This document shows, piece by piece, positions 1 through 29,562 of a DNA stretch of 64,000 nucleotides. Position 1 is the stretch's first letter; each line of letters opens with the position of its first letter. The translations under genes were made by a program, and so were the position numbers. A model generated the notes under the pieces. The model was given only the letters and a program-made list of their open reading frames with translations, did not search any database and had not been told where the DNA came from. The DNA lies in assembly GCF_988242995.1 (NCBI RefSeq), contig NZ_OZ547043.1; one strand, 5' to 3'.

Positions 1-702
1 GGTAGTGCGATGAAAATCCTCGTACGGGAAAATACCGCTAGCCTGCGCGCCACCGATGAACGTTTGTTATTGGCCTGCGGTGCAAATATGGTTATCCCAT
101 GGAATGCCCCACTCTCCCGCTGTCTGACGATGATCGAAAGCGTGCAAGGGCAGAAGTTTAGTCGCTATGTGCCGGAAGATATCACTACCTTGCTGTCAAT
201 GACCCAGCCGCTCAAACTGCGTGGTTTCCAGAAGTGGGATGTGTTCTGTAATGCCGTCAACAACATGATGAATAACCCTCTATTACCTGCCCACGGTAAA
301 GGCGTTCTGGTTGCCCTACGTCCGGTACCGGGTATCCGCGTTGAGCAAGCCCTGACGCTGTGTCGCCCTAACCGCACCGGCGATATCATGACTATTGGCG
401 GTAATCGGCTGGTGCTGTTTCTCTCATTCTGTCGGATTAACGATCTGGATACCGCGTTGAATCATATTTTCCCATTGCCGACTGGCGACATTTTCTCAAA
501 CCGTATGGTCTGGTTTGAAGATGATCAAATCAGTGCCGAGCTGGTGCAGATGCGCCTGCTTGCCCCAGAACAATGGGGCATGCCGCTGCCTTTAACGCAA
601 AGTTCTAAACCGGTCATCAATGCCGAGCACGATGGTCGCCACTGGCGACGAATACCAGAACCAATGCGACTGTTAGATGATGCTGTGGAGCGCTCATCAT
701 GA
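1..702 (+). CDS. bcsE: Cellulose biosynthesis protein BcsE, C-terminal part (gene starts upstream of window)
   Basis: Reading frame open from window edge to stop at 700-702; 230-aa in-window ORF; lies immediately upstream of bcsF-bcsG as in the E. coli bcsEFG operon. Confidence 0.8.
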
Positions 703-890: not shown

Positions 891-2566
891 CTCAATTTAC
901 GCAAAATACCGCCATGCCTTCTTCCCTCTGGCAATACTGGCGCGGTCTTTCCGGCTGGAACTTCTATTTTCTGGTTAAGTTCGGCCTGTTGTGGGCGGGA
1001 TATCTTAACTTCCATCCGCTCCTCAATCTGGTGTTTGCCGCGTTTCTGCTGATGCCCATTCCGCGCTACAGCCTGCATCGCTTACGCCACTGGATTGCCC
1101 TGCCGATCGGCTTTGCTTTGTTCTGGCATGACACCTGGTTGCCTGGCCCGGAAAGCATAATGAGCCAGGGTTCGCAGGTGGCGGGGTTCAGTACCGATTA
1201 TTTAATCGACCTTGTCACACGCTTTATTAACTGGCAGATGATTGGGGCCATTTTTGTTTTATTAGTGGCCTGGTTATTCCTGTCACAATGGATTCGCATT
1301 ACCGTTTTTGTGGTTGCCATTCTGCTATGGCTGAACGTACTTACCCTGGCGGGACCAAGTTTCTCCTTGTGGCCAGCCGGTCAACCGACGACCACTGTAA
1401 CAACGACGGGTGGTAACGCAGCGGCAACCGTTGCGGCGACGGGTGGCGCACCGGTAGTGGGTGATATGCCCGCACAAACTGCACCGCCAACAACGGCGAA
1501 TCTTAACGCCTGGCTGAATAATTTCTATAACGCGGAGGCGAAACGTAAATCGACCTTCCCGTCTTCGCTGCCCGCTGATGCTCAGCCATTTGAACTACTG
1601 GTGATTAATATCTGTTCGCTTTCCTGGTCGGATATTGAAGCCGCCGGGTTGATGTCGCATCCGCTGTGGTCGCATTTCGATATTGAGTTCAAGAACTTTA
1701 ACTCCGCCACCTCCTACAGTGGCCCGGCGGCGATCCGTTTACTGCGCGCCAGCTGCGGGCAGACTTCGCACACTAATCTGTATCAACCGGCAAATAACGA
1801 CTGCTATCTGTTTGATAACCTGTCGAAACTGGGCTTTACCCAGCACCTGATGATGGGACATAACGGCCAGTTCGGCGGTTTTTTGAAAGAAGTTCGCGAA
1901 AATGGCGGCATGCAGAGCGAATTGATGGATCAAACAAATCTGCCGGTTATTTTGCTGGGCTTTGATGGTTCGCCGGTTTATGACGATACCGCCGTGCTTA
2001 ACCGCTGGCTGGACGTTACCGAAAAAGATAAAAACAGCCGTAGTGCCACGTTCTACAACACGCTTCCACTGCATGACGGCAACCATTATCCGGGCGTCAG
2101 CAAAACAGCGGATTACAAAGCGCGAGCGCAGAAATTCTTTGATGAGCTGGACGCCTTCTTTACTGAACTGGAGAAATCGGGTCGTAAAGTGATGGTGGTC
2201 GTGGTGCCGGAACACGGTGGCGCGCTGAAGGGCGACAGAATGCAGGTATCTGGCCTACGTGATATCCCTAGCCCGTCTATCACAGACGTCCCCGTTGGGG
2301 TGAAATTCTTCGGCATGAAGGCACCACATCAGGGGGCACCGATTGTCATCGACCAACCGAGCAGCTTCCTGGCTATCTCCGATCTGGTGGTTCGCGTTCT
2401 TGATGGCAAGATTTTCTCCGAAGACAATGTTGACTGGAAAAAACTCACCAGTGGGTTACCACAAACAGCACCGGTCTCCGAGAACTCAAATGCAGTAGTT
2501 ATTCAATACCAGGATAAACCGTACGTTCGCCTGAACGGCGGCGACTGGGTGCCTTACCCGCAATAA
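887..2566 (+). CDS. bcsG: Cellulose biosynthesis protein BcsG (559 aa), membrane-anchored alkaline-phosphatase-superfamily enzyme
   Basis: 559-aa ORF with N-terminal TM helices and a Thr/Ala/Gly-rich linker; ATG overlaps bcsF stop; recognised as E. coli BcsG/YhjU. Confidence 0.9.
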
Positions 2567-2571
2567 GAACG

Positions 2572-2602
2572 AAAAAGGCCGCAGAGTTTCACCCCTGCGG
2601 CC
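2572..2602 (-). terminator. Rho-independent terminator (hairpin ggccgcag...ctgcggcc with T-run on minus strand) downstream of ldr copy 1
   Basis: Inverted repeat GGCCGCAGAGTTTCACCCCTGCGGCC preceded on plus strand by an A-run; identical element repeated at 3055-3085. Confidence 0.6.
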
Positions 2603-2652
2603 TGGTCCGGGCGCAAATTGCCATTACGGCAGCCTGACGCCCGCATGACACG

Positions 2653-2760
2653 TTACTTCCGCTTATTCAGCGAGTTCACGATCAGACTGGCAAGAATGCC
2701 AGCAATGATCGGAGCCGCTAAATCATGCCAGAAGGCCATGCCCAGCTCTGCGAGCGTCAT
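2653..2760 (-). CDS. ldrD: Type I toxin Ldr family, 35 aa (MTLAELGMAFWHDLAAPIIAGILASLIVNSLNKRK)
   Basis: 35-aa peptide at the 3' end of the 80-aa ORF-track frame; ATG (plus-strand cat) at 2758-2760; hydrophobic helix plus KRK tail typical of Ldr toxins. Confidence 0.8.
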   Translation of the reverse strand: MTLAELGMAFWHDLAAPIIAGILASLIVNSLNKRK

Positions 2761-27376: not shown

Positions 27377-28372
27377 ATGCAGCCCAAAATTTACTGGATT
27401 GATAACCTGCGAGGGATAGCGTGTTTAATGGTGGTGATGATTCACACCACTACCTGGTATGTGACCAATGCTCATAGTGTTAGCCCCGTCACATGGGATA
27501 TCGCCAATGTTCTGAATTCTGCCTCTCGTGTCAGCGTGCCGCTATTTTTCATGATTTCCGGCTATCTCTTTTTTGGCGAACGCAGCGCCCAGCCGCGCCA
27601 TTTCTTGCGTATCGGCTTATGTCTGCTTTTTTATAGCGCAATCGCACTGCTCTACATTGCGCTGTTTACCTCCATCAATATGGAGTTAGCGCTGAAAAAC
27701 CTGCTGCAAAAGCCAGTGTTTTACCACTTGTGGTTTTTCTTCGCGATTGCGGTGATTTATCTGGTTTCACCGCTGATTCAGGTGAAGAACGTCGGCGGAA
27801 AAATGTTGCTGGTGCTAATGGTGGTGATTGGCATTATCGCTAACCCAAACACAGTGCCGCAGAAAATTGACGGTTTTGAATGGCTGCCAATTAACTTATA
27901 TATCAATGGCGATACTTTTTACTACATCCTGTATGGCATGTTGGGCCGCGCTATAGGGATGATGGACACACAGCATAAAGCACTGTCGTGGGTGTGCGCC
28001 GCACTGTTTGCGACGGGGGTTTATATTATCTCTCGCGGGACATTATATGAATTGCAGTGGCGCGGAAATTTTGCCGATACCTGGTATCTTTACTGTGGGC
28101 CGATGGTTTTTATCTGCGCAATCACGCTATTGACTCTGGTTAAAAACACGCTGGATACGCGTACCGTTCGCGGACTTGGCTTAATCTCCCGCCATTCGTT
28201 GGGTATATACGGATTCCACGCCTTGATTATCCATGCACTGCGCACCCGGGGGATTGAGCTTAAAAACTGGCCAATACTCGATATTATTTGGATCTTTTGC
28301 GCGACGTTGGCAGCGAGTTTGTTACTTTCTATGCTGGTACAACGAATCGACAGAAACAGACTAGTGAGTTAA
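27377..28372 (+). CDS. wecH: O-acetyltransferase WecH (acyltransferase-3 family membrane protein)
   Basis: 331-aa polytopic ORF recognised as WecH/YiaH. Confidence 0.88.
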
Positions 28373-28380
28373 ATAAATAT

Positions 28381-28406
28381 CCTCCGGCATAGCCGGAGGT
28401 TTTTCA
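28381..28406 (+). terminator. Rho-independent terminator of wecH
   Basis: Hairpin CCTCCGGCATAGCCGGAGG followed by TTTTTC. Confidence 0.7.
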
Positions 28407-28409
28407 AAT

Positions 28410-29085
28410 GCGCCTATAAGGCTCTCTTACCAGCCGCGCCCTAACAGGCGCACACGATCTGACATTTGCATCCAACTTCGTTACTTACGGCCCGTAAACG
28501 GGCTGCCCGGATAGGGAATCGATAACTGCTCTCCCATTTTATCCTCTTCAAGCTGGTGCTTTATGTAATCCTGTATCTTCGCCGTGTTCTTACCCACTGT
28601 ATCGACGTAGTACCCTCTGCACCAGAACTCCCTGTTCCTGTATTTGAATTTCAAATCACCAAACTGCTCGTAAAGCATCAGACTGCTTTTCCCTTTCAGA
28701 TATCCCATAAAGCCGGATACGCTCATTTTGGGCGGGATCTCCACAAGCATATGGATATAATCTGCACAGCATTCAGCTTCCAGAATCCGTACGCTTTTCC
28801 ACTCACACAGCTTTCTCAAAATACTGCCTATTGCTCTACGCTTCTCTCTGTAGAACACCTGTCTTCGGTATTTTGGCGCAAAAACTATGTGATATTTACA
28901 GTTCCATCGGGTGTGCGCTAAGCTCTTTTCGTTCCCCATTGGGACCCCCTTTTGATTTCTTGTTTGACACTTGCAGTTGCCAGACCGCAAAGTGTTTTAA
29001 CAAATCAAAAGGGGTTTTAATAACTGGCTCAAAGCTGAAAGCTTTCCGGAACCCCCAGCCTAGCTGGGGGTTTTCTGTGCACAAT
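28410..29085 (-). mobile_element. IS200-like insertion sequence (IS200/IS605 family); boundaries approximate
   Basis: Single Y1-transposase gene flanked by about 70 bp (3' side) and about 150 bp (5' side) containing a strong hairpin (ACCCCCAGCCTAGCTGGGGGTT, 29053-29076), typical of the IS200 left end; inserted between the wecH and yiaA terminators. Confidence 0.7.
28481..28939 (-). CDS. tnpA: IS200/IS605-family Y1 transposase TnpA (152 aa)
   Basis: Start trimmed to ATG (plus-strand cat 28937-28939); MGNEKSLAHTRWNCKYHIVFAPKYRRQ... with HuH motif (YIHMLV) and catalytic Tyr region. Confidence 0.9.
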   Translation of the reverse strand: MGNEKSLAHTRWNCKYHIVFAPKYRRQVFYREKRRAIGSILRKLCEWKSVRILEAECCADYIHMLVEIPPKMSVSGFMGYLKGKSSLMLYEQFGDLKFKYRNREFWCRGYYVDTVGKNTAKIQDYIKHQLEEDKMGEQLSIPYPGSPFTGRK

Positions 29086-29124
29086 AAAGGCCCGGTCACA
29101 TTGGACTGACCGGGCTTATGTGAA

Positions 29125-29562
29125 TTATTCGCTGTATTCTTCCTGGGTAACCTGTGTTTCTTTTAGTGGGTTTATTCCGGCATCACGAATATTCTTCTGC
29201 ACCGCTACTGCACCAAACAAGCTTAAGAAGAAAGCTAGTCCATAAAAACCTTTCTCGCTGAGTAATAATGTCGCATTCCACAGACCTACCATCAGTAATG
29301 CAACAGAGATAATAAAGACAGTCAGGCAGGTCATATAATAAATGGAAGTGGTCGGTATGCCTTCATACTTGTCCCGAACGGTCTTTTGATAAGACGCAGC
29401 AGAAAACAGTCCTAATACCAGTACGGCAAAATAATATCCTTTTTCATTTAACTGCATCTCTGCATTCCATAGCCCTAACAGATAGGTAACGATACCACCA
29501 ACGAGAGCTATCCATGACACAATACTGAATGCCGGAGAATAGGTTGATATTTTGTTGTCCAT
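29125..29562 (-). CDS. yiaA: Inner membrane protein YiaA (145 aa)
   Basis: Hydrophobic ORF with duplicated YiaAB two-helix motif; ATG at plus-strand cat 29560-29562; own terminator hairpin at 29089-29116. Confidence 0.82.

Follow-up and report, generated by a model that had tools for sequence, protein, structure and literature searches.

In the 64-kb stretch of DNA analysed here (hereafter, the window), the stop codons of the convergent genes wecH and yiaA are 752 bp apart, whereas a K-12-type genome has 41 bp and a single hairpin between them. Hence, 711 bp were added at this locus. This raises the questions of what was inserted, why it landed at this very position, and how it could have moved with a transposase whose catalytic motif is altered.

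Identity and limits of the element

The added DNA (28373-29083, minus strand) is a complete 711-bp copy of IS200C, from the IS200 group of the IS200/IS605 family (Table 1). It is an already known element in its typical kind of site. Its top strand is the minus strand of the window, which contains this copy and no second one. Copies at other loci are 99.3-100% identical to it across the 711 bp; those at 99.3% carry the RefSeq annotation IS200C (PGAP naming), and NCBI names the exact protein encoded by the window copy IS200C family. The sole ORF in the element with a family match is the 152-aa tnpA, and tnpB is absent. The element also has plus-strand ORFs of 121 aa and 92 aa, which were set aside as unsupported. 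The tnpA product matches the Pfam profile Y1_Tnp (PF01797; 5.2e-37, 127 bits for a cut-off of 23) and the NCBIfam equivalog transpos_IS200 (NF033573; 142 bits for a cut-off of 55, 1e-41), and its relatives with solved structures are the Y1 transposases of Sulfolobus, IS608, and ISDra2 (PDB 2EC2, 2A6M, 2XM3). A preliminary description of this locus had proposed a single 152-aa Y1/HUH transposase gene in an element of IS200 family and architecture, with a strong hairpin near its 5' (left) end and no disruption of genes. All of this stands: there is one Y1 gene (28481-28939, minus strand), a left-end hairpin (29050-29072), and no target duplication, and the wecH and yiaA coding sequences are intact.

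Table 1. Features of the IS200C copy and of its flanks in the window. LE, left end; RE, right end; a point in the strand column marks a hairpin scored on both strands.
Feature	Position	Strand	Details
wecH (O-acetyltransferase), intact	27377..28372	+	Pfam Acyl_transf_3 2.7e-46; RefSeq annotation of homologous loci
IS200C, whole element	28373..29083	-	LE at 29083, RE at 28373; 711 bp
RE last five bases, TTTAT on top strand	28373..28377	-	presumed RE cleavage site
RE subterminal hairpin, 8 bp, loop 3	28381..28399	.	terminator scan scores both strands; folds as hairpin
tnpA, 152 aa + stop codon	28481..28939	-	full-length ORF, ATG at 28939, stop at 28481
Codon 125, catalytic Tyr (DYIKHQ)	28565..28567	-	intact; aligns with IS608 Y127
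Codon 61, TAT (Tyr) for CAT (His)	28757..28759	-	first His of HUH metal-binding motif; changed base 28759
art200 antisense sRNA, approximate (putative)	28931..29020	+	Salmonella IS200 coordinates transferred
LE stem-loop over ribosome-binding site, element nt 70-138	28946..29014	-	MFE and centroid fold
Rfam RF01405 STnc490 (IS200 LE RNA) match	28949..29072	-	144.6 bits vs gathering score 56; E = 5e-31; full model 1-124
LE perfect hairpin, element nt 12-34, 10 bp	29050..29072	-	folding
Target pentamer TTTAT, host flank immediately 5' of LE	29084..29088	-	within yiaA terminator T-tract; once in empty allele
Host hairpin, yiaA intrinsic terminator	29090..29115	-	terminator scan 9 bp, 7 GC; T-rich tail
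yiaA (inner membrane protein), intact	29125..29562	-	Pfam YiaAB 7e-40; RefSeq 438 nt; co-oriented with tnpA

The element has the length and the ends of IS200C of E. coli. It also resembles IS200/IS200F of Salmonella enterica, with 143 of 152 TnpA residues identical, a single gene in ~0.7 kb, and the same LE layout (hairpin at nt 12-34, stem-loop at nt 69-138, STnc490/art200); its 711 bp compare with the 707 bp quoted for Salmonella IS200 (PMC4513863). The Y1 transposases of IS608 (Helicobacter pylori) and ISDra2 are more distant homologues (E = 2.6e-18 to PDB 2A6M). They share with IS200C the subterminal hairpins in place of inverted repeats, the lack of a duplication, and insertion 3' of a short T-containing target, but IS200C in the window lacks the tnpB of IS608 and ISDra2.

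The limits of the element were set by comparison with empty and occupied sites. The assembly GCA_034199335.1 carries an empty allele from which exactly the 711 bp are missing and whose flanks show 0 differences from the window across 5,996 bp. Such an allele, with 100% identical flanks, fixes the boundaries and shows that the insertion was precise, very recent, and made no target-site duplication, the check that the preliminary description had advised. We also reconstructed the empty site, giving it the A that the eight occupied genomes have at 29089. Over 170 nt, this sequence has a single mismatch to each of 165 complete genomes; in the one genome examined, the mismatch lies away from the junction. 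A metagenome scaffold with an identical left flank has the occupied allele and breaks 52 bp inside the IS. IS200C copies elsewhere match the window from ~28372 to 29088.

These limits differ from those first proposed, in which the element spanned 28410-29085 and lay between two convergent host terminators, that of wecH (28381-28406) and that of yiaA. The hairpin at 28381-28399 and the TTTTT after it do score as a plus-strand terminator directly after wecH. However, this hairpin is part of the right end (RE) of every IS200C copy examined at unrelated loci, and it is missing from the empty sites, including the one with 100% identical flanks. The empty site holds 41 bp and one hairpin, which is the one at 29090-29115. 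We therefore give the earlier layout practically no credence: the supposed wecH terminator is the RE hairpin of the IS.

To place the ends, we aligned them against eleven further loci. The pentamer 5' of the LE varies by locus (TTTAT, TTAAT, TTCGT, TTACT, GTTTT, TTTGT, and others) and is not repeated at the 3' flank, which means that no target-site duplication is made. The RE finishes with ...CCTCCGGCTATGCCGGAGGATATTTAT in nearly every complete copy. Its last five bases are TTTAT in 10 of the 11 full copies aligned at the right end and TTTTT in the other, and TTAT ends every complete copy recovered in the junction collection described below. By analogy with IS608, we presume that cleavage at the RE takes place at 28373-28377. 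Because T flanks both junctions, each cleavage position can be placed only to within one base. In the window copy, ATAAA appears at the two junctions but has two origins: at one it is the terminal TTTAT of the element itself, and at the other it is the host target. The sequences of the LE and the RE are unrelated to each other, so there are no terminal inverted repeats, and each end has a subterminal hairpin.

Structures of the ends and the neighbouring genes

The LE of the window copy contains the parts described in Salmonella IS200, where a bidirectional terminator at nt 12-34 blocks read-through into tnpA (PMC4513863) and a stem-loop at nt 69-138 sequesters the Shine-Dalgarno sequence (PMC4513863; PMC5435999). 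A search for left-end hairpins had been recommended at the outset, and folding recovers both published structures, at element nt 12-34 and 70-138, with z = -3.9 for the 144-nt LE. All three parts of the LE are preserved, namely the terminator hairpin, the stem-loop that occludes the ribosome-binding site, and the STnc490/art200 region. Their regulatory functions in IS200C are inferred from Salmonella IS200, in which art200 and an sRNA derived from the 5'UTR, acting on invF, have regulatory roles (PMC4513863; PMC5435999). The strand of the RF01405 match is that of tnpA, whereas STnc490/art200 has been described as an antisense RNA of the LE region (PMC4513863), a discrepancy between two RNAs that both derive from the same LE segment. 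Matches to two other Rfam families, snoR41 and DLG2-AS1_2, fell below their gathering scores and were taken as chance.

The RE hairpin ends 8 nt short of the right end and is followed on the plus strand by TTTTT (28400-28404). It is kept in all the IS200C copies examined at other loci. Neither the LE nor the RE differs from the ends of other copies, so the sites needed in cis for transposition are intact.

On the host side, the stop codon of wecH (28370-28372) directly abuts the RE of the element, and insertion took place 6 nt past the stem of the yiaA terminator, within its T-tract. This terminator is the only hairpin between the two genes in empty sites and was retained after the insertion. 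It folds strongly both as RNA (-19 kcal/mol, z = -5.6) and as DNA (-11 kcal/mol, z = -5.7). Transcripts of wecH would now meet first the RE hairpin and its TTTTT, which are predicted to act as a terminator. In annotation, the hairpin after wecH should be given as IS-borne and not as host, within the corrected limits of the element.

Probable target choice at terminator tails

The position of the window copy raises the question of whether terminator tails are a habitual target of IS200C. To collect LE junctions, we scanned metagenomes with the initial 43 nt of the element, which gave 92 stretches, and added all other loci obtained in the analysis; together they supply 72 distinct 5' flanks. A flank was scored positive when it had a perfect hairpin of at least 5 bp, with at least 3 GC pairs and a loop of 3-8, ending at most 12 nt before the LE. 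Such a hairpin is present in 63 of the 72 flanks; under the same rule it is found at 15.7% of random window positions and at 13.3% of positions behind a T-rich pentamer (binomial p ~1e-45). Most of the remaining nine flanks have imperfect hairpins when inspected by eye. The junction follows the consensus TTNT/T after a GC-rich stem, the slash marking the point of insertion: T(-4) in 71/72, T(-3) in 63/72, any base at -2, T(-1) in 72/72, and T(+1) in 32/32. Orientation is constant, with the LE always beside the host hairpin. As a result, tnpA is co-directional with the upstream gene and doubly shielded, since both the host terminator and the element's hairpin at nt 12-34 stand in front of it. 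The T-tract that follows a terminator hairpin is thus the usual target of IS200C, which explains the position of the window copy.

The RE of the element has the same form, i.e., a hairpin, then ATATTTAT, then the cut, and the target may mimic it. This differs from the fixed targets of IS608 and ISDra2, TTAC and TTGAT, where IS200C takes TTNT/T just after a host hairpin; in IS608, the cleavage site is selected by pairing with a guide sequence, which is a feature of that element. A preprint reports that terminator-like sequences are enriched just upstream of IS200/IS605 elements. A nucleotide-level terminator rule for IS200 or IS1541 was not found in the searchable literature, a search that covered sources other than the older subscription journals.

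The link between hairpin and target is correlative, drawn from natural insertions, and selection after insertion could contribute to it. At its strongest, this would mean that the transposase has no such preference and that the pattern reflects the survival of harmless insertions. Copies behind terminators disrupt nothing and have their tnpA shielded from read-through, and in the preprint the pattern is interpreted as a niche in which transposase expression is restricted. Yet survival would have to account for a registration to the nucleotide (T(-1) 72/72, T(-4) 71/72, T(+1) 32/32) and a fixed orientation with the LE beside the hairpin, when hairpins accompany only 13% of the matched T-rich pentamers and neutral intergenic DNA has many other positions on offer. 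We regard selection in place of target choice as very unlikely, and retain an apparent target preference of IS200C for terminator tails as our reading.

The strand of the insertion agrees with what is known of the family. GC skew along the window is below zero in 7 of its 8 bins, and the locus lies, in the same orientation, at ~3.72 Mb in a K-12-type record. We take this map position to be on the counter-clockwise replichore. The skew and the map position indicate that the minus strand of the window, i.e., the top strand of the IS, is the lagging-strand template, assuming synteny with K-12. The minus strand also carries the T's after the yiaA hairpin. In the IS200/IS605 family, the top strand is on the lagging-strand template, and the IS200C copy of the window agrees with this. 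Under the single-strand "peel-and-paste" mechanism, the top strand of IS200C would leave its donor site as a circle and then be pasted into a single-stranded stretch of the lagging-strand template, on the 3' side of a short target. The preferred target would be a terminator-type hairpin followed by TTNT/T, resembling the element's own RE.

Complete genomes suggest that the very same site was used repeatedly. The wecH-yiaA site is occupied in 8 of the 5,426 complete RefSeq genomes of E. coli, the closest over a 1.3-kb query being strain TUM1886 (99.2%). The elements at the occupied site belong to at least three haplotypes that are discordant with their flanks: TUM1886 and Nord122 have 0 differences in the element and 40 in the flanks, and EBJ003 and Nord122 have 4 in the element and 3 in the flanks. 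The copy of strain Yu5 is a pseudogene. Probably, then, the same nucleotide position was hit independently several times; alternatively, copies were overwritten by gene conversion. The preliminary description had seen in the element a lineage marker. This holds for a very recent sub-lineage and fails more widely, given the 8 occupied genomes in 5,426, the three or more haplotypes, and the state of the closest relatives. The exact WecH protein of the window is present in 133 blocks of the collection, and most genomes with it have an empty site (the empty allele described above and 22 similar places). For strain typing, the insertion thus marks only a very recent sub-lineage and is unfit as a deep lineage marker.

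The altered HUH motif and the spread of Y61 copies

The tnpA ORF of the window copy is full-length. A truncated or frameshifted gene, which the preliminary description had thought would speak against an IS200 element, was not found, but that test misses a missense change in the catalytic motif. The only difference between the window TnpA and the common IS200C TnpA (WP_000526135.1, IS200C family in PGAP) is at residue 61, where the window copy has H61Y. The HUH motif reads Y61-I62-H63 (YIH) and is not intact, where Salmonella TnpA has HIH. In the alignments with the structures of IS608, ISDra2, and Sulfolobus TnpA, Y61 stands under the first His of HUH ("cadYiHml" vs "dkdHiHil" in IS608). HIH is found in wild-type IS200C, IS200F, and relatives from Yersinia and Tatumella. 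Position 61 is His in 144 and Tyr in 3 of 148 aligned family representatives (from the best 150; 50%-identity clusters), the Tyr cases including close relatives or relics of the same element. The codon is CAT in 26 of 26 unselected metagenome copies, and the base at 28759 is G (= CAT) in all 8 other copies at the same site. Mutation of H64, H66, or Y127 inactivates the TnpA of IS608 (PMC3597680), the published His mutants being H64A and changes of that type. By this analogy, TnpA-Y61 is most likely inactive, and the copy is predicted to be without an active transposase. The broken motif bears on predicted activity and not on ancestry.

The window copy is not the only one of its kind. The exact Y61 protein is encoded on 25 contigs of a large collection, its carriers including the assemblies GCA_034225025.1, GCA_032614775.1, and GCA_900448615.1, and the loci other than wecH-yiaA include rplT-pheM, tynA-feaB, pmrD-ymgL, fadR-ycgB, and kdsA-ldr. 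The recurrence of the protein was discarded as evidence by itself, since any missense variant of an abundant protein recurs in a large collection; the evidential weight lies only in whole-element identity of 100% across different loci. Such identity exists here: the Y61 copies at rplT-pheM and pmrD-ymgL match the window element at 100% across all 711 bp. Identical Y61 elements at other loci, together with the empty allele with identical flanks, indicate the recent transposition of an element that was already Y61.

How would such an element move? TnpA supplied from a plasmid mobilised a tnpA-less derivative of IS608, and also a mini-IS200 (PMC4513863). TnpA can act in trans on any pair of ends, which makes wild-type sister copies the simplest explanation for the movement of Y61 elements. 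In this mechanism, the Y61 copy would be non-autonomous with intact ends, and the wild-type TnpA of sister copies would mobilise it. The known non-autonomous derivatives of IS200/IS605 elements likewise combine intact ends with a transposase gene predicted to be non-functional. However, their tnpA is deleted, while that of the window is full-length with one missense change, and its loss of activity is predicted. Taken together, we consider it likely that the window holds a recent terminator-tail insertion of IS200C whose TnpA is most likely inactive through H61Y, and which was non-autonomous and moved by sister copies.

Y61 is found at seven or more sites and in at least three haplotypes of the element, which could instead reflect recurrent mutation, gene conversion, or retained activity of Y61. 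With retained activity, Tyr or another ligand would replace the first His in metal binding, and the copy would have inserted itself autonomously. Identical Y61 elements at three loci, a second Y61 haplotype at two loci, and the very recent date of the window insertion are all compatible with this, and the helper H61 copy is presumed, with none within the 64-kb window. Nevertheless, the near-universal His of the family representatives (144/148, with relatives or relics of the same element among the three Tyr cases) and the loss of IS608 activity upon mutation of H64 or H66 (PMC3597680) argue against an active Y61. Intact Y61 copies are also essentially absent from ~7,900 places with IS200C in complete genomes, unlike what is expected of a successful active variant. 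We find this reading unlikely, and mobilisation in trans remains the one we prefer.

The frequency of intact Y61 copies needs some care. The IS200C segment is present in 2,058-2,332 of the 5,426 complete E. coli genomes (~38-43%). A 52-mer of Y61 type centred on the codon occurs in 135 of 2,196 records. The three of these that we examined are a truncated (element nt 3-499) and frameshifted relic beside a group II intron within a bcs-like cluster, so the 52-mer count was rejected as a measure of how frequent intact Y61 copies are. With a 68-mer that excludes the relic, an exact match was obtained in at most 1 of 2,548 complete-genome records. Hence, intact Y61 copies are rare.

The relic bears on another scenario, in which an H61 copy was inserted and His was changed to Tyr in place, by point mutation or by short-patch gene conversion, e.g., from the widespread relic. 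All 8 other copies at the site have H61, the several haplotypes with Y61 show that the change or transfer occurred more than once, and the TAT-bearing relic type is present in ~135 records, mostly plasmids. On the other side, all 711 bp are identical to the Y61 copies at two other loci, and the zero divergence of the flanks from the empty allele leaves little time for a later mutation. The differences specific to the relic that are closest to the codon, 23 nt (element nt 348) and 71 nt (nt 254) away, are unshared, so any conversion tract would be shorter than ~95 nt. A change in place seems quite unlikely to us, and the transposition of a copy already bearing Y61, with wild-type TnpA provided by sister copies, accounts better for these identities.

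Two points of this locus are of some interest: the mutation of the HUH motif in a recently transposed copy, and the precise targeting of terminator tails. A broader proposal would join them: IS200C would pick its targets by structure as well as sequence, terminators mimicking its RE, and a dead "YUH" copy would spread as a non-autonomous parasite. We hold this combined view as tentative and somewhat doubtful. Since each active site of TnpA is built across the dimer, the YUH copy could moreover serve as a poison subunit and lower transposition. A natural HUH-motif mutant present at several loci offers a convenient way to test for mobilisation in trans or residual activity. If the preference for terminator U-tracts is target recognition, it would extend the target rules of single-strand transposons and would explain why IS200 is so benign.

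Insertion sites and left end of IS200C

We compiled 72 distinct IS200C left-end junctions, comprising the window junction (29084-29125) and those of the comparison loci L002-L114. In nearly all of them, the insertion point lies within a T-tract directly 3' of a terminator-like hairpin. A perfect hairpin is present in 63 of the 72 5' flanks, against a background of 13-16%. The junctions conform to a TTNT|T consensus, in which position -1 is T in 72/72 sites and position +1 is T in 32/32. Orientation is fixed, with the hairpin always on the side of the left end.

Within the left end of the window copy, the match to the Rfam STnc490 model (28949-29072) lies on the tnpA-sense strand, whereas STnc490/art200 has been described as antisense to the tnpA 5'UTR (Ellis et al. 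2015). This discrepancy may stem from the strand convention used for the Rfam seed.

The wecH-yiaA site

Eight complete genomes with an occupied site (L014-L021) carry at least three IS200C haplotypes at the same nucleotide position, and the divergence of the element is discordant with that of the flank. The right-end junctions of the MEW and GN02461 copies have one additional A/T; the Yu5 copy, an annotated pseudogene, has three 1-bp deletions.

Position 29089, located at the stem base of the yiaA terminator, is G in the window and A in K-12 and in 8/8 of these genomes. An insertion scar is ruled out: since the same G occurs in L118, whose site is empty and whose flanks are identical, the sequence comparison identifies it as a lineage allele.

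Codon 61 and an IS200 relic

The His-61 codon of wild-type IS200C copies places its C within a GATC (Dam) site (GATCAT), which is lost through the change to Tyr.

Coordinates of the codon 61 region, the relic and the variant left end
Feature	Location	Positions	Strand	Sequence or remark
Codon 61 region	window	28757-28762	minus	GATTAT
Truncated, frameshifted IS200 relic	L115 (plasmid pTB211, NZ_CP033251.1)	2209-2704		
Truncated, frameshifted IS200 relic	L116, L117 (chromosomes)	2220-2704		
Variant IS200C left end	L013 (metagenome contig with Y61 protein)	295-330		GATGCACAGACCCCCCCCAGCCTAGCAGGGGG

The relic corresponds to element nucleotides 3-499 (~97% identity) and has TAT at codon 61, as does the window copy. 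In L115-L117 it directly follows a group II intron (ltrA), within a bcsB-bcsZ'-bcsC cluster. Terminators are also targets of certain classes of group II intron.

In L013, the variant left end is similar to the relic's hairpin variant. The 5' flank of the L013 copy is not T-rich; this copy may represent a diverged subtype or a product of recombination.

The relic is probably the source of the Y61-type 52-mer in most of the 135 records that have it: all three records examined carried the relic, and just one record has the 68-mer that excludes it. In gene conversion, the relic could act as a donor.
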